In this document: piece by piece, positions 3 to 8,824 of the stretch
How the letters are laid out: every line of letters starts with the position of its first letter
Position numbering within the stretch: the first letter of the stretch is position 1
Assembly: GCA_045636865.1 (NCBI GenBank)
Contig: JAZTYJ010000004.1
Coordinates: 108,662-172,661, forward strand
Direction of reading: 5' to 3'
DNA length: 64,000 nucleotides
Origin: Eubacteriales bacterium
Lineage (GTDB): Bacteria > Bacillota > Clostridia > Oscillospirales > JAAYXM01
Notes under the pieces: model-generated
Databases searched by the model: none
The model's input: the letters and a program-made list of their open reading frames with translations, nothing else
What the model was told of the DNA's origin: nothing
Program-made: the position numbers and the translations under genes

Positions 3-1850
3 TTTGACTATGTTGTCAGCGGTGAGCTCAAGGTTCAGGTAGGCGAGCATACAGAACTTCTTCGCGAGGGCGACAGCATCTATTATGACAGCTCAACACC
101 ACACGGTATGATTGCCGTCGGCGGTCGCGACTGCGTATTCTGTGCAGTTGTTCTTCCGGGAGAGGACACAAAGGAAGAGGCGGTCCGCGACAGCGTTGCA
201 TCGCTTCGCCCGTCAATGAAGCTTGTTTGCGAAGAGTTTGTTGATACAAAGGAAAGTGAACCGGGAGTTTTGGAGAGCGTAAGCTTTAAAAACACCGAAA
301 AATTCAACTTCGGATATGACTGCGTTGATGCAGTTGCAGAAAAATATCCCGACAAGCTTGCGATGATCCACCTTGACAAAAACAAGGTTGAGCGCCGATA
401 TACCTTCAAGGATATCAAACGCGAATCTGCAAGATGTGCAAACTACTTCACATCTCTCGGAATCAAGCGCGGCGACAGGGTTATGCTCGTTCTTAAACGC
501 CATTATCAGTTCTGGTTCTCTATGGTTGCGCTTCACAAAATCGGAGCAATTGCAATCCCTGCAACTCATCAGCTTAAAGAACACGATTTTGAATATCGCT
601 TCAATGCGGCAAATGTTTCTGCAATCGTCTGCACGGTTGATGACGGTGTACCGGCAATAGTCAATAACACAGCGGAGAAGTGCCCTCAGCTCAAAACCTT
701 CGTTTCGGTTGGCGGAAGTGTTGACGGATGGCATGATTTTGATGCTGAATACCCGATGTTCTCAAGTAATTTTGAAAGAGCAGCTGATTGCTCTGCGGGC
801 GATGAACCGGCACTTATGTTCTTCTCATCCGGCACAACGGGAAATCCGAAAATGGTTCAGCACAAGCACACCTACGCTCTCGGTCATTTCGTAACCGCAA
901 AGTACTGGCACTGCTGCGAGAGAGACGGTCTCCACCTCACGATTTCCGACACCGGCTGGGGTAAATCACTCTGGGGCAAGCTCTACGGTCAGTGGCTCTG
1001 TGAGGGTGCTGTGTTCGTATATGACTTTGACCGCTTTGATGCATCGGATATCCTTCCGATGTTTGCAAAATACAACATCACAACCTTCTGTGCACCTCCG
1101 ACAATGCTCCGTATGATGATTAAAGAGGATCTTTCATGCTATGACCTCTCGTCAATTCATCATATGACGACAGCAGGAGAGGCACTCAATCCGGAAGTTT
1201 TCAAGCAGTTTGAAAAGGCAACAGGTCTTCAGATTATGGAAGGCTTTGGCCAGACTGAAACAACGCTTGCGATTGCAAACCTTTACGGAACGACTCCGAA
1301 GGTCGGCGCAATGGGAAAAGCATCTCCGCAGTATGACATCGATATAGTTGACCCCGACGGCAACCCTGTCAAAACAGGTGAGACGGGCGAAATCGTTGTC
1401 AGACTTGATAAGGGAACACCGGTCGGACTCTTCAGTTGCTATCTTGACGATGAAGAAAAGATGGAAGAGTGCATGCGCGGCGGTATGTACCATACGGGCG
1501 ACACCGCATGGCGTGACGAGGACGGATATTTCTGGTATGTCAGCCGCATAGATGACGTCATCAAGTCATCGGGATACCGCATCGGTCCGTTTGAGATTGA
1601 GAGCGTCATCATGGAACTTCCGTATGTTCTTGAATGCGGCGTATCGGCTGCTCCCGACGAGGTTCGCGGTCAGATTGTAAAGGCAAGTATTGTTCTCACA
1701 AAGGGCACAGAGCCGACAGAGGAGCTTAAGAAGGAAATCCAGAATTACGTCAAGGAAAATACGGCTCCGTATAAGTATCCGCGCCTTGTTGTATTTCGTG
1801 ACTCACTTCCGAAGACAATAAGCGGAAAAATACAGAGAAACAAGCTCTAA
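3..1850 (+). CDS. cupin-AMP-forming acyl-CoA synthetase fusion (ACSM/medium-chain-like), 5' end outside the window
   Basis: The frame is open from the window edge. Residues before the first Met (FDYVVSGELKVQVGEHTELLREGDSIYYDSSTPHG) align with the cupin part of the paralog at 2209..4497. The rest carries AMP-binding motifs (SSGTTGNPK, YHTGD, SGKIQR). Confidence 0.85.
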   Translation, partial: FDYVVSGELKVQVGEHTELLREGDSIYYDSSTPHGMIAVGGRDCVFCAVVLPGEDTKEEAVRDSVASLRPSMKLVCEEFVDTKESEPGVLESVSFKNTEKFNFGYDCVDAVAEKYPDKLAMIHLDKNKVERRYTFKDIKRESARCANYFTSLGIKRGDRVMLVLKRHYQFWFSMVALHKIGAIAIPATHQLKEHDFEYRFNAANVSAIVCTVDDGVPAIVNNTAEKCPQLKTFVSVGGSVDGWHDFDAEYPMFSSNFERAADCSAGDEPALMFFSSGTTGNPKMVQHKHTYALGHFVTAKYWHCCERDGLHLTISDTGWGKSLWGKLYGQWLCEGAVFVYDFDRFDASDILPMFAKYNITTFCAPPTMLRMMIKEDLSCYDLSSIHHMTTAGEALNPEVFKQFEKATGLQIMEGFGQTETTLAIANLYGTTPKVGAMGKASPQYDIDIVDPDGNPVKTGETGEIVVRLDKGTPVGLFSCYLDDEEKMEECMRGGMYHTGDTAWRDEDGYFWYVSRIDDVIKSSGYRIGPFEIESVIMELPYVLECGVSAAPDEVRGQIVKASIVLTKGTEPTEELKKEIQNYVKENTAPYKYPRLVVFRDSLPKTISGKIQRNKL

Positions 1851-1865
1851 ATACAGCAAAAACTG

Positions 1866-1894
1866 TTGACAATACTTGAAAGTTGGTATATAAT
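1866..1894 (+). promoter_or_regulatory. sigma-A promoter, TTGACA-17 nt-TATAAT
   Basis: Perfect -35 (1866-1871) and -10 (1889-1894) hexamers with a 17-nt spacer, directly upstream of the T-box leader. Confidence 0.8.
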
Positions 1895-1904
1895 AATTAC
1901 AAAT

Positions 1905-2185
1905 TATAAAAAGGCTTTGACGAAGAGTGCGCAGATATGGCGGGCGTTCAGAGAGATAGCGGTTGGTGCGAGCTATTGCATTGCGGTCTGCGGTTGTAGC
2001 TTCCGAGCTGAAAGGAAGAAAGCCGGTTTACGGTCAGTAGAACCTTTCCGTGATTGCTGCGTGAAGGCATAAGGCTTATTGGAGCCTGAGTGGTGCAACT
2101 TATGCACAATTTGAGTGGTACCGCGGGTGTATTGTTTTTCTCACTCGTCTCAAAGAATGTCAGCTTTGGGACGAGTGTTTTTCGT
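1905..2185 (+). promoter_or_regulatory. T-box leader (tRNA-sensing riboswitch), probable valine specifier GUA
   Basis: Stem I has a GA/K-turn-like UGACGAAG, an AG bulge AGAGAG (1950-1955) and a distal hairpin atagc-GGTTGGTGCGA-gctat. The specifier loop 3' side is GUUGUAG (1993-1999) between helices 1930-1936/1986-1992 and GAAG/CTTC. Stem III lies at 2093-2107. The conserved T-box sequence AATTTGAGTGGTACCGCG is at 2108-2125. The antiterminator 3' strand is shared with the terminator. Confidence 0.9.
2132..2182 (+). terminator. T-box-controlled intrinsic terminator
   Basis: Stem cactcgtctcaaag / ctttgggacgagtg with an 8-nt loop, followed by TTTTT. It overlaps the alternative antiterminator pairing GAGTG/CACTC. 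Confidence 0.85.
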
Positions 2186-2208
2186 TCCGGAAGAAGGAGA
2201 GTTATGTT

Positions 2209-4497
2209 ATGGAAAATATGACACAGCTTGATTTTAAAATTAAAGAAATGGCGGCGCGTATCCGCGAGCTTCGAGAGATTGAAGGCCTTTCGGTTGAAGA
2301 GATGGCGGAGAAAACAGGCGTTGAGCTTTCAGAATATCTTCGTTGTGAAAAGGGTGAGCACGACTTAAACTTCGCGTTTATTTACCGTTGTGCGGCAGTT
2401 CTTCGCGTAAACGTAACCGATATTATCGAAGGCTACAGCCCGACTCTTAAATCGTTTACGGTTACGCGTTCAGGTCTCGGTCAGAAGATAGGTCAGGCTC
2501 ACGGTATGACTTACTACAACCTTGCCTATGCGTTTCAGAATCGAATCGCCGAGCCGCTTTACGTCAGGATTTCATATGACGACAGCATAAACGAGTCTGA
2601 TATTGAGCTCACGTCACACGACGGTCAGGAGTGTGACATCATTGTTGAAGGTCATCTTATGGTGCAGATAGGGGAGCACCGCGAGATTCTCGGACCGGGC
2701 GACAGTATCTACTACGACAGTAACACACCCCACGGTATGATTGCGACAAACGGGGCAGACTGCGTTTTCTACGCAATCGTTCTCAATCCGTCAGGTGAGC
2801 CGATTCCGGAGCTTGCACCGACAAAGGCGATTTCTGACACACGCGAAATCAAGAAGGATACAAAAGAACGTATCTATCATAAATATATTGATGTCGAGGA
2901 GAACAAAAACGGAACTCCGACGTCAATTACATTCAAGAACACAGAAAAGTTCAACTTTGCGTTTGACCTTGTTGATGCTCTTGCAGAGCGTGAGCCGGAT
3001 AAGCTTGCGATGCTTCATATTGACATCAACAAAGTAGTAAGACCGTTTACATTTACCGACATCAAGCGCGAGTCTGCAAGATGTGCAAACTACTTCAAGT
3101 CTCTCGGCATCAAGAAGGGCGACCGCGTAATGCTCGTCTTAAAGCGCCATTATCAGTTCTGGTTTGCGATGATCGGTCTTAACAAACTCGGCGCAATCGC
3201 AATTCCCGCTACAAATCAGCTTCAGGTTCACGACTTTGAATACCGCTTCCGGGCGGCAGGTGTAAACACCATCATCTGCACGGCTGACGGTGAAACTGCC
3301 GCACAGGTAGACGAGGCGGCAAAGACGTGTCCCGAGCTTGTAAATAAGCTTATAGTCAACGGTGAGCGCGAAGGATGGAGAAACTTTGACGAAGAGTTCA
3401 AGCTCTTCAGCTCACACTTTGAGAGAAGCGAGGATTCTCCGTGCGGAGATGACCTTCTCCTTATGTTCTTTACATCGGGAACAACGGGATATCCGAAGAT
3501 TGCGGCACACAGCCACAAATATCCGCTCGGTCATTTCCACACAGCAAAATACTGGCACAATGTTGACCCCGACGGTCTCCACTTCACAATCTCCGACACG
3601 GGTTGGGCAAAGTCAATGTGGGGTAAGCTCTACGGTCAATGGCTCTGCGAGGCGGCAACGTTTGTTTACGACTTTGACCGCTTCGATGCAAAGGAAATTC
3701 TTCCGATGTTTGCAGAGCACAAGATAACAACCTTCTGTGCACCTCCGACAATGCTCCGCATGCTTGTTAAAGAAGACATTTCACAGTATGACTTCTCGTC
3801 CGTAAAGCATATGTCAACAGCGGGTGAGGCACTCAACCCCGAGGTTTACAGACAATTTGAAAAGGCAACGGGCCTCCAGATTATTGAAGGCTTCGGTCAG
3901 ACGGAAAGCACGATGATCATCGGTAATATGGTCGGTGCTCCGCATAAGATCGGATCTATGGGTAAGCCTGCTCCGATTTACAAGGTTGAGCTCGTGAACG
4001 AAAAGGGTGAAGAGGTTGCAATCGGTGAGACGGGTGAAATCGTCGTAAATGTAAAAGACGGTATGCCATGCGGTCTCTTTACGGGATACTACCGCGATCA
4101 GGAGAAGACAGACGAAGTCCTCCACGATGGCTACTATCACACGGGCGACACCGCGTGGCGCGATGAAGACGGCTTCTATTGGTACGTCGGACGCGTTGAT
4201 GACGTTATCAAGTCATCGGGATACCGCATCGGTCCGTTTGAAATCGAAAGTGTTATTATGGAGCTTCCGTATGTTCTTGAGTGCGGCGTATCAGCGGCTC
4301 CCGATGAGGTCCGCGGTCAGATAGTAAAGGCAAGTATCGTTCTCACAAAGGGAACTGAACCGACAGAAGAGCTCAAAAAAGAGATTCAGACATACGTCAA
4401 AGAGCACACGGCTCCGTATAAGTATCCGCGACTTGTCGTCTTCCGCGATTCACTTCCGAAGACGGTAAGCGGAAAGATTCAGAGAAATAAACTTTAA
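2209..4497 (+). CDS. XRE-HTH - cupin - AMP-forming acyl-CoA synthetase fusion protein (762 aa)
   Basis: RBS GAAGGAGAG lies 8 nt upstream. The N-terminus is an XRE-type HTH (res ~10-70). A cupin follows (GDSIYYDSNTPHG), then the adenylate-forming core (TSGTTGYPK, GYYHTGD, SGKIQR). Confidence 0.9.
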   Translation: MENMTQLDFKIKEMAARIRELREIEGLSVEEMAEKTGVELSEYLRCEKGEHDLNFAFIYRCAAVLRVNVTDIIEGYSPTLKSFTVTRSGLGQKIGQAHGMTYYNLAYAFQNRIAEPLYVRISYDDSINESDIELTSHDGQECDIIVEGHLMVQIGEHREILGPGDSIYYDSNTPHGMIATNGADCVFYAIVLNPSGEPIPELAPTKAISDTREIKKDTKERIYHKYIDVEENKNGTPTSITFKNTEKFNFAFDLVDALAEREPDKLAMLHIDINKVVRPFTFTDIKRESARCANYFKSLGIKKGDRVMLVLKRHYQFWFAMIGLNKLGAIAIPATNQLQVHDFEYRFRAAGVNTIICTADGETAAQVDEAAKTCPELVNKLIVNGEREGWRNFDEEFKLFSSHFERSEDSPCGDDLLLMFFTSGTTGYPKIAAHSHKYPLGHFHTAKYWHNVDPDGLHFTISDTGWAKSMWGKLYGQWLCEAATFVYDFDRFDAKEILPMFAEHKITTFCAPPTMLRMLVKEDISQYDFSSVKHMSTAGEALNPEVYRQFEKATGLQIIEGFGQTESTMIIGNMVGAPHKIGSMGKPAPIYKVELVNEKGEEVAIGETGEIVVNVKDGMPCGLFTGYYRDQEKTDEVLHDGYYHTGDTAWRDEDGFYWYVGRVDDVIKSSGYRIGPFEIESVIMELPYVLECGVSAAPDEVRGQIVKASIVLTKGTEPTEELKKEIQTYVKEHTAPYKYPRLVVFRDSLPKTVSGKIQRNKL

Positions 4498-4523
4498 TAA
4501 ATTATATAAAGGAGAGAATCAAG

Positions 4524-5591
4524 ATGTATAATTTTCCGGTAACAAAAACACAGAACCCGAAGCCGCATCCGCAGGATGAGTCAAAGCTCGCTTTCGGAAA
4601 GGTATTTACGGACCACATGTTCGTTATGAACTACACCGAAGGTAAGGGCTGGCACGACGGAAGAATTGTTCCTTACGAGAAACTCTCTCTTGACCCGTCA
4701 GCTATGGTCTTCCACTACGGACAGGAAATGTTTGAAGGTCTCAAGGCTTATAAGGGCCGCGACGGTAAGACTCGTCTTTTCAGACCTGATATGAACGCAA
4801 AGCGCACAAACGCTACAAACGAGCGTCTCTGCATTCCGGAGCTTCCGGAGGAGCTTTTTGTTGAAGCTTGTAAGGCAGTTGTAAAGGTTGATGAAGACTG
4901 GATTCCGACAGCTCCGGGCACATCACTCTACATCCGTCCGTTCATCATCGCAACAGACGAATTCCTCGGCGTTGCTCCGTCAAAGACATACCTCTTCATC
5001 ATTATCCTCTCACCGTCAGGTGCATACTACGCAAGTGGTCTTGCTCCGGTTGGTATCTGGATTGAAGATGACTATGTAAGAGCTGTAAAGGGCGGTATGG
5101 GCTTTGCTAAGACAGGCGGCAACTACGCAGCAAGCCTTGCAGCACAGGTTAAGGCACACGACGAAGGATATTCACAGGTTCTCTGGCTTGACGGTGTTGA
5201 AAGAAAGTACATCGAAGAAGTTGGCGCTATGAACATCTTCTTCAAGATTGACGGAAAGATCGTTACTCCGATGCTCAACGGCAGCATTCTTCCGGGTATC
5301 ACAAGAAATTCGGTAATCGAAGTCTGCAAGTCATGGGGATATGAGGTTGAAGAGAGAAGAATCAGCGTTGAAGAGCTTATTGATGCACAGAAGTCAGGAA
5401 AGCTTGAAGAGTGCTTCGGAACAGGTACTGCAGCTGTTATCTCTCCGGTCGGAAAGCTTCGCTATAAGGATGACGTTATGCTCATCAACGGCAACACAAT
5501 CGGCGAAGTCAGCCAGAAGCTCTACGATACCATTACAGGCATCCAGTGGGGCGAATGTGAGGATAAGTTTAATTGGTCAGTAATAGTTTAA
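4524..5591 (+). CDS. ilvE: branched-chain amino acid aminotransferase
   Basis: 355-aa class IV aminotransferase of BCAT type (FHYGQEMFEGLKAY, LYIRPF, GGMGFAKTGGNYA). RBS AAAGGAGAG. Confidence 0.9.
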   Translation: MYNFPVTKTQNPKPHPQDESKLAFGKVFTDHMFVMNYTEGKGWHDGRIVPYEKLSLDPSAMVFHYGQEMFEGLKAYKGRDGKTRLFRPDMNAKRTNATNERLCIPELPEELFVEACKAVVKVDEDWIPTAPGTSLYIRPFIIATDEFLGVAPSKTYLFIIILSPSGAYYASGLAPVGIWIEDDYVRAVKGGMGFAKTGGNYAASLAAQVKAHDEGYSQVLWLDGVERKYIEEVGAMNIFFKIDGKIVTPMLNGSILPGITRNSVIEVCKSWGYEVEERRISVEELIDAQKSGKLEECFGTGTAAVISPVGKLRYKDDVMLINGNTIGEVSQKLYDTITGIQWGECEDKFNWSVIV

Positions 5592-6241
5592 ATAAAAGAA
5601 TAACCCTTTTTTGCGGTCATTACGGCAGCGGAAAAACGAATATTGCAGTAAATTTTGCAATAGAGCTTGCAAAAAGGGGAGAGGCTGTCAGCATAGCCGA
5701 TATTGATATTGTAAACCCGTATTTCAGAACGAAGGACAGTATTGACGAGCTCATAGCGGCAGGAGTAGACGTGGTTGCACTTCCGTTTGCAAACACAAGT
5801 GTCGATCTTCCCGCAATTCCGTCAGAGGTTTACGGTCTCATCCAGATGAGAGACAAGCGCGTTGTAATGGATATCGGCGGTGACGACAGAGGCGCATACG
5901 CGCTCGGCAGGTTTGCGGATAAGATAAAAGAAGAAAACAGCTTTGATATGGTTTTCGTTGTGAATTTCTACCGTCCGCTGACACCCGATGCAGAGTCGGC
6001 TCTCTCAATTATGCGTGAGATAGAAGCGGCGTCAAAGATTCCGTTTTCCTGCATAATCAACAACTCAAACATCGGTGAGGAGACGCGTGCAGACGACATC
6101 AGAAAGACGATTCCGCTTGCAGAGGAGCTCTCGGAATTGTCAGGGCTTCCGGTTGTCGGAGTTTCCGCAAAGAAGGAATTTGAAAGTGAACTTGGGCTTG
6201 AGAGCTTTCTGGCTCTCAACCTTCAGAAAAAAATATTTTAG
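5573..6241 (+). CDS. P-loop NTPase (SIMIBI/G3E-like), function unknown
   Basis: Walker A GHYGSGKT and Walker B VVMDIGGDD. Apparent TTG start overlaps the ilvE 3' end by 19 nt, with GAGG about 10 nt upstream. The start site is uncertain. Confidence 0.6.
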   Translation: MVSNSLNKRITLFCGHYGSGKTNIAVNFAIELAKRGEAVSIADIDIVNPYFRTKDSIDELIAAGVDVVALPFANTSVDLPAIPSEVYGLIQMRDKRVVMDIGGDDRGAYALGRFADKIKEENSFDMVFVVNFYRPLTPDAESALSIMREIEAASKIPFSCIINNSNIGEETRADDIRKTIPLAEELSELSGLPVVGVSAKKEFESELGLESFLALNLQKKIF

Positions 6242-6253
6242 AAGGAGATTGTT

Positions 6254-6460
6254 ATGGCTAAGGTAACATTTGCGTCAGACATATGCAAGGGCTGCGGTCT
6301 TTGCGTAGGTGCATGTCCCAAGGGCATCATCACTCTTGCGACAGATAAGATCAATAAAAAGGGGCACTCTCCTGCAGAAATAACTGATCAGGAAAAGTGT
6401 ATCGGTTGCGCTTTCTGTGCAACAATGTGCCCTGACTGTGTAATTACGGTAGAAAAGTGA
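6254..6460 (+). CDS. 2-oxoacid:ferredoxin oxidoreductase delta subunit (2x[4Fe-4S] ferredoxin-like)
   Basis: 68 aa with two CxxCxxCxxxCP motifs (CKGCGLCVGACP, CIGCAFCATMCP). Confidence 0.85.
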   Translation: MAKVTFASDICKGCGLCVGACPKGIITLATDKINKKGHSPAEITDQEKCIGCAFCATMCPDCVITVEK

Positions 6461-6472
6461 GGTGTGTGAGAA

Positions 6473-7534
6473 ATGGCAGAAAAAGTTTTGATGAAAGGTA
6501 ACGAAGCTATCGCGGAAGCTGCAATTCGTGCAGGTTGCCGCCATTACTTCGGATATCCGATTACTCCGCAGACGGAAGTCGCGGCTTATATGGCAAAGAG
6601 AATGCCGAAAATCGGCGGAACATTCCTTCAGGCAGAAAGTGAAGTTTCCGCAATCAATATGGTATATGGTGTTGCAGGTGCAGGATTCCGTGTTATGACA
6701 TCCTCATCAAGCCCCGGTATATCACTCAAGCAGGAGGGTATCTCCTACATAGCAGGTGCTGACCTTCCGGCACTTATCGTTAACGTTCAGCGCGGAGGCC
6801 CCGGTCTCGGCGGAATCCAGCCGTCTCAGTCTGACTATTTCCAGGCTACAAAGGGCGGCGGTCACGGTGACTATCACCTCATCGTTCTCACTCCCGAATC
6901 CGTTCAGGAAATGGCGGATATGACAGCTTTGGCATTCGACCTTGCCGATAAGTACAGAATGCCGGCAATGCTTCTTTGTGACGGTACAATGGGTCAGATG
7001 ATGGAACCGGTTGAGCTTCCCGAGGAGCACGTAAACGTTATCGAAAAGCCCTGGGCGGTAAACGGCACAAAGGGCGAGCGTGAGCACAACATCATAAACT
7101 CACTCTACTTAAAACCCGAAATTCTCGAGGACAAGAACTTTGAGAGATACGAGAGATATAAGCTCATTGAAGAAACTGAAGCAAGACACGAAAGCTTTAT
7201 GATGGACGATGCAGAAATCTGCGTTGCAGCATTCGGTATTGCGGCACGCGTTGCAAAGAACGCAGTTGTTGCAGCCCGCAAGGAAGGCATCAAGGTCGGT
7301 ATGATCCGTCCGCTCACGGTATGGCCGTTCCCGAAGAAGGCATTTGCAGAAGCTGCAAAGCAGGTTAAGTCATTCATCAGCGTTGAGCTTTCAATGGGAC
7401 AGATGATTGAAGATGTTGCACTTGCAACAGAATGCAAAAAGCCAGTTCACCTCTGCAACCGTTCAGGCGGTATGATTCCGACACCTGAACAGGTTCTTGA
7501 GATGATCAGAGAAATCAACGGAGGTAACAGATAA
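6473..7534 (+). CDS. 2-oxoacid:ferredoxin oxidoreductase alpha subunit
   Basis: The N-terminus GNEAIAEAAIRAGCRHYFGYPITPQTE is typical of POR/KOR/VOR alpha subunits. 353 aa. Confidence 0.85.
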   Translation: MAEKVLMKGNEAIAEAAIRAGCRHYFGYPITPQTEVAAYMAKRMPKIGGTFLQAESEVSAINMVYGVAGAGFRVMTSSSSPGISLKQEGISYIAGADLPALIVNVQRGGPGLGGIQPSQSDYFQATKGGGHGDYHLIVLTPESVQEMADMTALAFDLADKYRMPAMLLCDGTMGQMMEPVELPEEHVNVIEKPWAVNGTKGEREHNIINSLYLKPEILEDKNFERYERYKLIEETEARHESFMMDDAEICVAAFGIAARVAKNAVVAARKEGIKVGMIRPLTVWPFPKKAFAEAAKQVKSFISVELSMGQMIEDVALATECKKPVHLCNRSGGMIPTPEQVLEMIREINGGNR

Positions 7535-8286
7535 TGGTAGTTTTTGAAAAACCGAAGAGCCTTACAAATGCTGAGCTTCATTACTGCCCGGGCTGTTGCC
7601 ATGGTATCATCCACAGACTCGTAGCACAGGCACTTGATAAGCTTGATATTACAGGTAAAACAATCGGTGTTGCACCGGTTGGATGTGCTGTTATGGCATA
7701 CGACTACTTCGCTTGCGATATGGTAGAGGCAGCTCACGGACGTGCTCCGGCAGTTGCAACAGGTCTCAAGCGCGCAATGCCCGATAACATCGTTTTCACA
7801 TACCAGGGTGATGGCGACCTCGCATCAATCGGTATGGCAGAGACGGTTCACTCCGCAGCAAGAAACGAGAATATCACAATCATTTTCGTAAACAATGCAA
7901 TTTACGGTATGACAGGCGGTCAGATGGCTCCGACTTCTCTTCCGGGTCAGGTTACACAGACATCTCCCTACGGCAGAGACGTAAACGTCGCAGGTTATCC
8001 GATCAGAGTTTCCGAGATGCTTGCAACACTTGACGGTCCGCAGTATATCGAGCGCGTTGCAGTCAATAACGTCAAGAACGTAAAGAAAGCTGAAAAGGCA
8101 ATTCTCAAGGCTTTCGAAAACCAGGTCAACGGAAAGGGATTCTCATTTATCGAGGTTATCTCAACTTGTCCGACAAACTGGGGTATGACACCGCAGAAGT
8201 CTCTCGAGTGGGTTGAAGAGAATATGATTCCGTACTATCCGCTCGGAGTATACAAAGACAAGAGCGCCGAAAAGGAGGAAGCATAA
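7534..8286 (+). CDS. 2-oxoacid:ferredoxin oxidoreductase beta subunit (TPP-binding)
   Basis: TAATG stop/start overlap with the alpha subunit. TPP motif YQGDGDLASIG...NNAIYGMTGGQ. N-terminal Cys pair CPGC. Confidence 0.85.
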   Translation: MVVFEKPKSLTNAELHYCPGCCHGIIHRLVAQALDKLDITGKTIGVAPVGCAVMAYDYFACDMVEAAHGRAPAVATGLKRAMPDNIVFTYQGDGDLASIGMAETVHSAARNENITIIFVNNAIYGMTGGQMAPTSLPGQVTQTSPYGRDVNVAGYPIRVSEMLATLDGPQYIERVAVNNVKNVKKAEKAILKAFENQVNGKGFSFIEVISTCPTNWGMTPQKSLEWVEENMIPYYPLGVYKDKSAEKEEA

Positions 8287-8287
8287 T

Positions 8288-8824
8288 ATGACTACACAGT
8301 TGCTTTTAGCAGGCTTTGGTGGCCAGGGTATCCTCTTTGCAGGAAAGTTTCTCGCATATAAGGGCCTTTTGGAGGGCAGAAACTTAAGCTGGCTTCCGTC
8401 TTACGGTCCTGAAATGCGCGGTGGTACAGCAAACTGCAGCGTTATCTTAAGTGATGAGCCGGTCGGTTCACCGATCGTTTCAAATCCGGATATCCTTGTT
8501 GCAATGAACCTTCCGTCTCTCGATAAGTATGAAGACGCAGTTGTGCCGGGTGGCATGATTTTCGTTGACTCTACTCTCATTGAGCGTAAGGTAAAGAGAA
8601 CTGACGTAAAGGTGTTCTACATCCCGTCAACGCAGCTTGCACAGCAGATGTCGGCACCGACTCTTGCAAATATGATTATGACAGGCAAGCTCATCCGCGA
8701 AAGCGGAATGGTTGAGAAGGAAAACATCGAAGATGCACTCAAGAAAGTCGTTTCGGCAAAGCGTGCAAACCTTCTCGAAATCAACCTCAAGGCAATCAAT
8801 TGCGGAATGGAATACGAAGGCTAA
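8288..8824 (+). CDS. 2-oxoacid:ferredoxin oxidoreductase gamma subunit
   Basis: 178 aa. [18 protein letters not shown] is typical of the POR-gamma family. It starts 2 nt after the beta subunit stop. Confidence 0.85.

Follow-up and report, generated by a model that had tools for sequence, protein, structure and literature searches.

Tandem T-box-controlled acyl-CoA ligases of Clostridia carry a regulator-like HTH-cupin head that may act on the enzyme

Introduction

What does a module built like a transcriptional regulator do at the front of a metabolic enzyme? The question is raised by a 64,000-nucleotide stretch of DNA from an Eubacteriales bacterium (hereafter the window: positions 108662-172661 of contig C4 in a 1.65-Mb assembly of 91% completeness). 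The window opens with two tandem genes, copy 1 and copy 2, each of which joins an XRE-type helix-turn-helix (HTH) domain and a cupin barrel to an acyl-CoA synthetase. A preliminary description of this DNA had considered them possible trigger enzymes that regulate transcription in response to their own substrate or product. Here, control of both ligase genes by tRNA charging, i.e. by demand for an amino acid, is strongly supported, and we give a probability of about one half to the view that the HTH-cupin head is a sensor or subunit acting on the ligase at the protein level, a view drawn from comparison of sequences and predicted structures. The locus thus offers a testable set of genes, in which ligases are paired to amino acids by T-box specifiers and one putative pocket residue tracks the isoleucine (Ile) or valine (Val) type. 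No paper on the fusion or on this operon was found within the limited literature collection searched.

Architecture and Distribution of the Fusion

Copy 2 (2209-4497, + strand) is a single open reading frame (ORF) of 762 amino acids (aa) in which each part scores above its Pfam cut-off: HTH_31 (33.0 bits, cut-off 27) and HTH_3 (25.9 bits, cut-off 23) at aa 13-71, with HTH_31, HTH_19 and HTH_3 all falling within aa 13-76, Cupin_2 (44.4 bits, cut-off 27.2) at aa 132-190, AMP-binding (PF00501, 217 bits) at aa 259-628, and AMP-binding_C (PF13193, 73.6 bits) at aa 678-756. Structure prediction of the N-terminal module and of the full-length protein with AlphaFold2 (AF2) agrees with these profiles, and places an HTH_3-type domain of five helices (aa 6-24, 29-35, 40-47, 55-64, and 69-74; pLDDT 83-91) ahead of the Cupin_2 barrel. 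On the + strand, the acidic XRE-like domain (aa 6-74) thus occupies 2224-2430, the cupin barrel (aa 84-192) 2458-2784, a linker (aa 193-245) 2785-2943, and the synthetase 2944-4497. The full-length model has a pLDDT of 81.8 and a predicted template-modelling score (pTM) of 0.67, the module alone a pLDDT of 85.5. Low-confidence stretches are aa 75-80, 95-100, and 196-204; aa ~222-245 are confidently modelled as continuous with the N-terminal domain of the ligase.

Copy 1 (3-1850, + strand) is open at the start of the window, which holds its 3' 1.85 kb with Cupin_2, AMP-binding (228 bits), AMP-binding_C (76 bits), and the motif GWGK. Inspection of a locus extended by 10 kb upstream (L005, whose coordinates are those of the window plus 10000; L-numbers denote fetched loci) shows that this apparent truncation stems from the window itself: the gene is intact in the genome, encodes ~755 aa from an ATG at ~L005 9586 ('MATVETRK'), ~414 nt before the window, and includes the HTH, so that the layout of the two copies is the same. 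The proteins are 64% identical overall, 49-53% in the N-terminal module (N-module) and 71% in the ligase part.

An assembly or sequencing artefact joining two genes, the possibility that the preliminary description had wished to see checked, is ruled out because the fusion recurs in thousands of independent assemblies with the reading frame conserved through the linker. A search with the N-terminal 235 aa, scored in full-length candidates, yields 4,180 fusion-length protein clusters from Oscillospiraceae, Ruminococcus, Clostridia, and Monoglobales metagenome-assembled genomes (MAGs), and at least 580 fusion loci occur in species-representative genomes. The survey of relatives, all of which are uncultured MAGs, accordingly depicts a common clostridial arrangement. 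A homologue of the N-module was found in 31 of 32 genomes of the same family and, at E <= 1e-20, in about half of the sampled Clostridia genomes (164/300; 94 of 178 genera); the names attached to the 4,180 clusters are only 'AMP-binding protein' or 'cupin domain-containing protein'. Synteny was counted in 80 fetched loci out of the at least 580, which come from rumen, hindgut, and faecal MAGs of Acutalibacteraceae, Oscillospiraceae, Eubacteriales, and similar groups. The Ile-type fusion lies directly 5' of the Val-type fusion in 47 of the 62 loci with enough upstream sequence; among the 48 with enough downstream sequence, a P-loop gene and a 2-oxoisovalerate:ferredoxin oxidoreductase (VOR) follow in 39, and ilvE in 38. 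One locus of a related genus (L022) has a single Ile-type fusion followed by a gene for a 482-aa protein with ACT and metallo-beta-lactamase folds (7281-8729, +), and no oxidoreductase genes.

Separate Gating of the Two Genes by T-boxes

Each copy lies behind a promoter and a T-box leader of its own, and the two copies are therefore gated separately. Upstream of copy 2, promoter P2 (1866-1894, +; TTGACA-17-TATAAT, 12/12 consensus positions), whose position is kept upstream of all orthologous T-boxes, is followed by a valine T-box leader (1908-2185, +) with the specifier GUA at 1996-1998 and then G, the T-box sequence UGGUACCGCG at ~2116-2125, and a terminator stem at 2142-2177 with a U-tract. 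The counterparts of copy 1 lie outside the window and consist of P1, another perfect TTGACA-17-TATAAT promoter (L005 9229-9257), and an isoleucine T-box (L005 9272-9513). In comparison with RF00230, the copy 1 leader scores 92.8 bits (E 1.2e-19), just below the gathering score of 93, and the copy 2 leader 86.7 bits (1908-2155; E 3.8e-18), also below it; both matches span the full model (1-219), and both leaders contain the AGAGA motif, the specifier loop, GUGGUACCGCG, and a terminator hairpin with a U-tract (14 bp at window 2142-2177, 12 bp at L005 9501-9528). When the specifier is read in the RF00230 alignment as the three bases ahead of the final unpaired loop base, copy 1 has AUC (Ile) and copy 2 has GUA (Val), in both leaders before a CUUC stem strand. 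The genome includes a tRNA-Val(UAC) gene; a tRNA-Ile gene did not turn up in the 91%-complete assembly. The proposal that the fusion sits under a T-box is thus borne out by a match with all expected elements, and extends to copy 1. No terminator was found between the stop of copy 1 (1850) and the second T-box, so transcripts that pass the first T-box run into the second.

The pairing of leader and gene is regular among relatives. About 130 T-box leaders were collected from their loci with an nhmmer profile, and specifier triplets were extracted by a regular expression anchored on the conserved specifier-loop stem, exceptions being inspected by eye. The AGAGA, specifier, T-box, and terminator elements recur throughout; the specifier is AUC in 47 of 47 leaders of copy-1-like genes, and GUA or GUC in 81 of 81 leaders of copy-2-like genes. 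One Val-type fusion (L072 2738-3005, +) stands under a leader with an Ile-like backbone (CCC-NNN-C-CUUC) and the specifier GUC, which looks like a naturally occurring exchange of leaders, or else a conversion after which the specifier was retuned.

The T-box branched-chain amino acid genes of Firmicutes (ilv-leu of B. subtilis; ileS, valS) have the same stem I specifier loop, UGGUACC, and terminator/antiterminator, and their specifiers likewise match the amino acid made. Unlike in those cases, two differently specified T-boxes stand here in tandem within one cluster, and unlike ilv-leu of B. subtilis, the genes that they precede appear to serve fatty-acid salvage (ligase, VOR, and IlvE) and not the acetolactate pathway.

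Ligase Part and Likely Specificity of the Two Types

The closest solved structure to the ligase part is MacsMa of M. acetivorans (PDB 3ETC; phmmer E 5.7e-188 over aa 10-525 of the ligase part; Foldseek TM 0.86 with 48-49% identity). Alignment of copy 2 to 3ETC identifies the motifs FTSGTTGYPK, EGFGQTE, AKYW, GWAK, and LPKTVSGKIQR. Hence the A3 motif (T/S)SGTTGxPK, the catalytic lysine of A10 (PKTxSGKIxR), the glycine that replaces Trp414 of Acs, and the pocket tryptophan of MacsMa are all present, the roles of these motifs following in part a published description (PMC10455477). MacsMa aligns with the full length of the ligase part, likewise with glycine for the Acs pocket tryptophan (EGFGQTE) and the alternative tryptophan (AKYW), and it shares GWGK with copy 1; unlike copies 1 and 2, its chain has no HTH-cupin head. 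Its preferred substrate is 2-methylbutyrate (PMC10455477). The best NCBIfam match of the ligase is MbcS (NF047394, 439.6 bits against an equivalog cut-off of 850), and we class the ligase as an MbcS relative below that cut-off. MbcS of Staphylococcus aureus activates 2-methylbutyrate and isobutyrate (PMC10026030, PMC11167679); it differs from the present proteins in having no HTH-cupin head and in supplying branched-chain fatty acid synthesis rather than amino acids. From homology, T-box specifiers, and operon context, we infer CoA-ligase activity on branched C4/C5 acids, and the two genes would then be paralogous ligases for branched short-chain fatty acids.

Comparison of 53 Ile-type and 67 Val-type proteins yielded only few type-separating positions in the ligase part, namely 325 (His in the Ile type, Asn in the Val type), 467 (Gly, Ala), 470 (Leu, Met), 482 (Gly, Ala), and 569 (Leu, Met). 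No such position was found in the C-terminal ligase domain (1489-1850 in copy 1, 4136-4497 in copy 2), which is by far the most conserved part of both types (0.92). Position 467, the residue after GW, is glycine in all Ile-type proteins and in MacsMa, and alanine in all Val-type proteins. We take it to be the equivalent of Val310 of Salmonella Acs, an acyl-pocket residue, and infer that it lines the acyl pocket. Glycine versus alanine at this position would make for a roomier pocket in the Ile-gated paralogue and a tighter one in the Val-gated paralogue, a difference that fits 2-methylbutyrate (C5) and isobutyrate (C4), respectively. The earlier suggestion that the two copies have different acid specificities is therefore very likely correct, as judged from the specifiers and from the residue after GW.

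In the N-module, type-separating positions fall in the HTH (54, 59, 60, 72, and 73) and in the first cupin strands (97, 100, 102, 112, and 117); their clustering in the cupin strands suggests that Ile and Val types bind different ligands.

The Head as a Dedicated Partner of the Ligase

The HTH-cupin head also exists as a separate protein. Genomes of the same family outside the host genus contain one fusion together with a separate ~185-aa protein that is 29-44% identical to the N-module. Twenty-five stand-alone module genes (~185-200 aa) from several Clostridia families were examined (L018-L021, L103-L110, L129-L141). In 24 of the 25, the next gene on the same strand encodes a stand-alone ligase that is 43-60% identical to the ligase part, the gap from stop to start being -1 to 38 nt in the 23 pairs measured, with a TAATG/TGATG overlap in six; an example of a split pair is L019 7964-8515 with 6279-7943. 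Conversely, all MacsMa-like ligases (E <= 1e-80) of 32 family genomes are either fused to a module or paired with one, leaving aside a single case that lies at a contig end. These true stand-alone modules came from whole-genome searches; use of the isolated N-module as a query for short proteins was abandoned, as it returned mostly fragments of fusions from short contigs.

A maximum-likelihood tree of 59 modules places the fused forms in a single clade (support 100/95) that is nested among the split forms. Inside this fused clade, the Val type is a clade of its own (100/99), and the Ile-type module of L022 branches below the split of the other Ile-type modules from the Val type. The likely history runs from a two-gene unit to a single fusion, followed by duplication of the Ile-type gene, one copy of which would have had its specifier and pocket retuned for valine. 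The HTH-cupin head is thus a dedicated partner of this ligase clade and not a chance fusion.

Control of the split pairs is heterogeneous. Ile T-boxes precede the pairs of L020, L130, L131, L134, L135, and probably L140, and many pairs have no T-box. One T-box-less pair (L018 5190-5310, +; genome G002) has a GC-rich hairpin (CCCCGTC...GACGGGG) and a U-rich run just before the ribosome-binding site, which may be a different attenuator. In 6 of 9 loci of one clade (L019 ~8530-8725, -; L104, L105, L106, L109, and L110), a Cys-rich ORF of ~65 aa with the motif 'VGDI.EM.K.HPCG...W.VLR.G.DF.L.C..C' lies 5' of the split pair; it presumably resembles DUF951.

Fold and Putative Ligand Site of the Head

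Conservation is 0.68 in the HTH, 0.73 in the cupin, and 0.53, the lowest value, in the linker; by this measure the N-module is under purifying selection. Without exception, the 143 modules, fused or split, have His137, Glu141, and His175, and about 30 other cupin positions are likewise invariant. The three residues form a 2-His-1-Glu pattern and align with 'GHAGNE...PH' of HppE, residues that we take to be its iron ligands, and a putative metal site can thus be assigned.

The best match in the PDB, by sequence and by fold, is 1Y9Q, an XRE-cupin 'regulator' from structural genomics, and the other top Foldseek matches are HppE, Psf4, HEPD, and MPnS, which share the HTH-like alpha-domain and cupin fold (E 1e-13 to 1e-10). 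The module profile matches HppE over aa 13-183. The resemblance to the HppE group has its bounds: identity is only ~18-20%, those enzymes perform oxygen or peroxide chemistry with no ligase partner, and they belong to phosphonate pathways, whereas the gene context here is a different one, namely a ligase with IlvE and VOR. The HTH-like domain of HppE, Psf4, HEPD, and MPnS is not known to bind DNA.

Does the Head Read DNA?

The XRE-cupin regulators (PuuR, ErfA, PsdR, and PauR, with 1Y9Q) are likewise made up of these two Pfam domains, HTH before cupin, have the size of the split form (~185-200 aa), and are also genetically linked to a metabolic gene. A head that acts as a DNA-bound repressor of P1, P2, or further promoters, its activity modulated by a cupin ligand or by the acyl-adenylate state as in BirA, is the alternative that has to be weighed first. 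BirA, an adenylate-forming enzyme with an N-terminal HTH, provides an analogy of mechanism only, with no sequence relationship. Such a trigger enzyme would add sensing of the substrate to the sensing of demand by the T-boxes, and it would be a widespread new one. Its case begins with the HTH itself, which is conserved, contains several of the positions that separate Ile and Val types, and passes the Pfam cut-offs for HTH_3 and HTH_31; moreover, the module profile matches a DNA-binding PbsX-family regulator (E 2.3e-5), SinR, DdrOC, and the 434 repressor.

The residues that would contact DNA speak another language. The recognition helix of copy 2 (aa 40-47) reads LSEYLRCE, and the pattern S/T-(V/L/E)-E-E-Y is found in all 143 fused and split modules. 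At the presumed equivalents of the 434-repressor contact residues Q17, Q28, Q29, S30, and Q33, the 143 sequences chiefly have V/P/E, V/L/E, E, E, and A. Missing are the polar or basic residues with which an XRE-cupin regulator would be expected to contact DNA, both where helix 2 begins and along the recognition helix, and the exposed positions 40, 44, and 45 of helix 3 vary within orthologue groups. The HTH has a net charge of -1 to -10 in all 120 fused proteins. At -5 and -7, the two copies are the most acidic of the 11 full-length HTH_3 matches in the genome, the remaining nine lying between -4 and +4, and they account for two of the three lowest HTH_3 scores. Net charge taken alone was weakened as an argument against DNA binding by a control, a generic XRE-cupin of the same genome that stands at -4; the residue pattern of the recognition helix appears to be the stronger argument.

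The search for an operator was equally unproductive. When ~130 promoter regions were aligned on the -35 box, only an A-tract, TTGACA(a), and TRTG-N-TAnAAT proved to be conserved, the rest of the genome lying beyond this search. No inverted repeat of 10 nt or more was found in P1 or P2, and the interval 1851-1905, which had been put forward as a first DNA target, contains the perfect promoter at 1866-1894 and no inverted repeat. Upstream of the split forms, no shared palindrome was found; promoters, leader hairpins, or the small upstream ORF are what occurs there. The head thus differs from the XRE-cupin regulators in its acidic helix without the usual contacts and in the lack of a palindromic operator in the regions searched, as well as in being coupled or fused to an enzyme gene whose transcription is often governed by a T-box. 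In addition, within the stand-alone clade that includes L019, another gene usually precedes the module in the operon, and a repressor that serves one or two promoters would seldom be made 1:1 at the level of an enzyme. Given the acidic recognition helix and the failure to find an operator in the regions searched, the autoregulatory trigger-enzyme idea is not supported, and reading of a canonical operator by the head is unlikely.

Several observations nonetheless weigh against a role confined to the protein level, and some of them keep DNA binding, although improbable, under serious consideration. First, XRE-cupin proteins of Pseudomonas are genuine repressors that act locally on adjacent metabolic genes (PMC7901475), and the tight adjacency of module and ligase gene could fit a repressor as well. 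Second, many split pairs lack a T-box and would need some other regulator. Third, an operator could sit elsewhere in the genome or co-vary with the protein. Fourth, the generic XRE-cupin of the same genome combines the acidic HTH with the H..E..H pattern, so that neither HTH charge nor triad is decisive. Finally, the AF2 model, with its pTM of 0.67 and no inter-domain error map, does not dock the head confidently on the ligase.

A Possible Sensor or Subunit of the Enzyme

A sensor or subunit that acts on the ligase remains the reading to which we give about even odds, and it is favoured because module and ligase are together in every genome examined, either fused or as translationally coupled neighbours. 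The cupin would bind a small molecule, probably with the assistance of a metal held by His137, Glu141, and His175, and would tune or assemble the ligase, with the XRE-like domain serving as a structural or contact domain instead of a DNA reader. As the ligase would catalyse the ATP-consuming first step, it is this step that would be modulated, in fusions by the head and in split pairs by the free-standing subunit. For the ligand, the simplest guess is the amino acid at the end of the pathway, Ile or Val; the acid or the acyl-CoA is equally possible. If a protein-level sensor is indeed at work, the module would offer a clear case of a DNA-binding family reused as an enzyme subunit, and the automatic annotation of such proteins as 'HTH transcriptional regulators' would need changing.

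End-product feedback has parallels, since acetolactate synthase, threonine deaminase, and isopropylmalate synthase have regulatory subunits or domains. In the case of acetolactate synthase, IlvN/IlvH is a small ligand-binding subunit that is encoded beside the first enzyme of branched-chain amino acid synthesis and controls it; the comparison is an analogy with no sequence relationship. A more specific proposal, which we offer tentatively, is that the head is the regulatory subunit or domain of an unrecognized two-component branched-acid CoA ligase, in which a repressor fold is reused and the binding of Ile or Val shuts the ATP-consuming step. The salvage pathway would then have the classical two tiers of control, i.e. 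feedback inhibition and tRNA-sensing attenuation.

Could the module merely hold or stabilize the ligase, as a relic of a regulator that serves scaffolding or oligomerization and senses no ligand? XRE-cupin proteins dimerize (PMC7901475), the recognition helix is degenerate, and the fold matches HppE-type enzymes. The HTH-like domain of these enzymes has a structural role. Yet the invariant His137/Glu141/His175 and some 30 further cupin positions exceed what a scaffold needs, and the type-separating positions 97, 100, 102, 112, and 117 cluster in the first cupin strands, which leaves the purely structural alternative rather doubtful, more so than DNA binding.

The least probable alternative, a second catalytic domain in the form of an HppE- or KdgF-like metal cupin that would, for example, epimerize 2-methylbutyryl-CoA or proofread misactivated acids, can draw on the profile alignment of the triad with HppE and on top fold matches that are mostly two-domain cupin enzymes, but is very unlikely in view of the low identity to HppE, of the fact that isobutyrate has no stereocentre and needs no extra reaction, and of hosts that are strict gut and rumen anaerobes, in which oxygen-dependent chemistry is not to be expected. 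The triad itself was weakened as evidence for catalysis: as the unrelated generic XRE-cupin shows the same pattern, it points to a working ligand- or metal-binding site common to the family and not to catalysis.

Operon and Proposed Pathway

Downstream of copy 2, and on the same strand, lie genes for IlvE, a branched-chain amino acid aminotransferase (4524-5591; NF009897, 507.9 bits against a cut-off of 307), a MinD/ParA/Mrp-like P-loop ATPase (5573-6241; Pfam and NCBIfam) that overlaps the ilvE stop, and the four subunits of VOR: a 2x[4Fe-4S] ferredoxin-like delta subunit (6254-6460; NCBIfam, below cut-off), VorB/alpha (6473-7534; NF005507, 556 bits against a cut-off of 399), and the beta (7534-8286) and gamma (8288-8824) subunits, these two, like delta, by NCBIfam matches below cut-off to subunit families of 2-oxoacid:ferredoxin oxidoreductases. 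The P-loop ATPase may possibly serve the delivery of Fe-S clusters or the maturation of the oxidoreductase.

That fibre-degrading Clostridia of rumen and gut require isobutyrate, 2-methylbutyrate, and isovalerate has been recognized since the 1960s, and it is for this reason that isoacids are fed to cattle. The route from branched acid to amino acid has been known biochemically in rumen bacteria for as long; the genes behind the requirement and their control are poorly defined. In the present cluster, uncharged tRNA would stabilize the antiterminator of the matching leader, with the result that the matching ligase is transcribed and, in the case of the Val leader, the oxidoreductase and transaminase as well. 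Copy 1, expressed on uncharged tRNA-Ile, would most likely produce 2-methylbutyryl-CoA, and copy 2, expressed on uncharged tRNA-Val, isobutyryl-CoA. The oxidoreductase, which is co-transcribed with copy 2, would operate in reverse and reductively carboxylate the acyl-CoA to the 2-oxo acid, and IlvE would transaminate the latter to the amino acid. The cluster thus most likely rebuilds Val and Ile from fermentation acids of the gut, pathway direction and substrates both being deduced from the gene content.

A search of the whole genome, in its 91%-complete assembly, gave no match for ilvD and only a 20.7-bit fragment match for ilvC; all 14 control genomes score. As ilvD and a convincing ilvC were not found, the succession of ligase, VOR, and IlvE is probably the main source of Val and Ile in this host. 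One feature sits less easily with this scheme, namely that copy 1 is not accompanied by its own genes for an oxidoreductase or a transaminase; synthesis of Ile would consequently need the Val-gated genes or read-through of the second T-box.

Related Units and Other Observations

A LeuA-like gene is present in the same genome (G000) despite the apparent absence of the classical Val/Ile route. It is found at L112 (G000:C25:14000-21000), where a Leu T-box with the specifier CUC (7001-6838, -), cut by the end of the locus, is followed by the LeuA-like gene (5371-6777, -; HMGL-like and LeuA_dimer) and by a gene for an 824-aa fusion of a xylose-isomerase-like TIM barrel (AP_endonuc_2) to an acyl-CoA synthetase (2907-5381, -). 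In L076, L081, and L082, this TIM-barrel-ligase lies a few kb from the Ile-type fusion on the opposite strand, with a CUC T-box between them on its own strand. It may be an isovalerate/leucine arm with a different N-terminal add-on.

Another locus of the same genome, L113 (G000:C23:37000-44000), has a T-box of 125.7 bits with the specifier UAC (Tyr; 2402-2637, +), followed on the + strand by ORFs for a 587-aa acyl-CoA synthetase without a head (2569-4332), a sodium:solute symporter (4348-5907), and a POR_N-type 2-oxoacid oxidoreductase subunit (5919-7001), and looks like a unit of the same logic for salvage of aryl-acetate to tyrosine.

Finally, a TPP riboswitch (L005 8122-8229, -; 70.3 bits) lies ~1.8 kb before the start of the window, followed by minus-strand ORFs (L005 4986-7926) that, to judge from their sequences, are a putative operon for thiamine salvage or biosynthesis.

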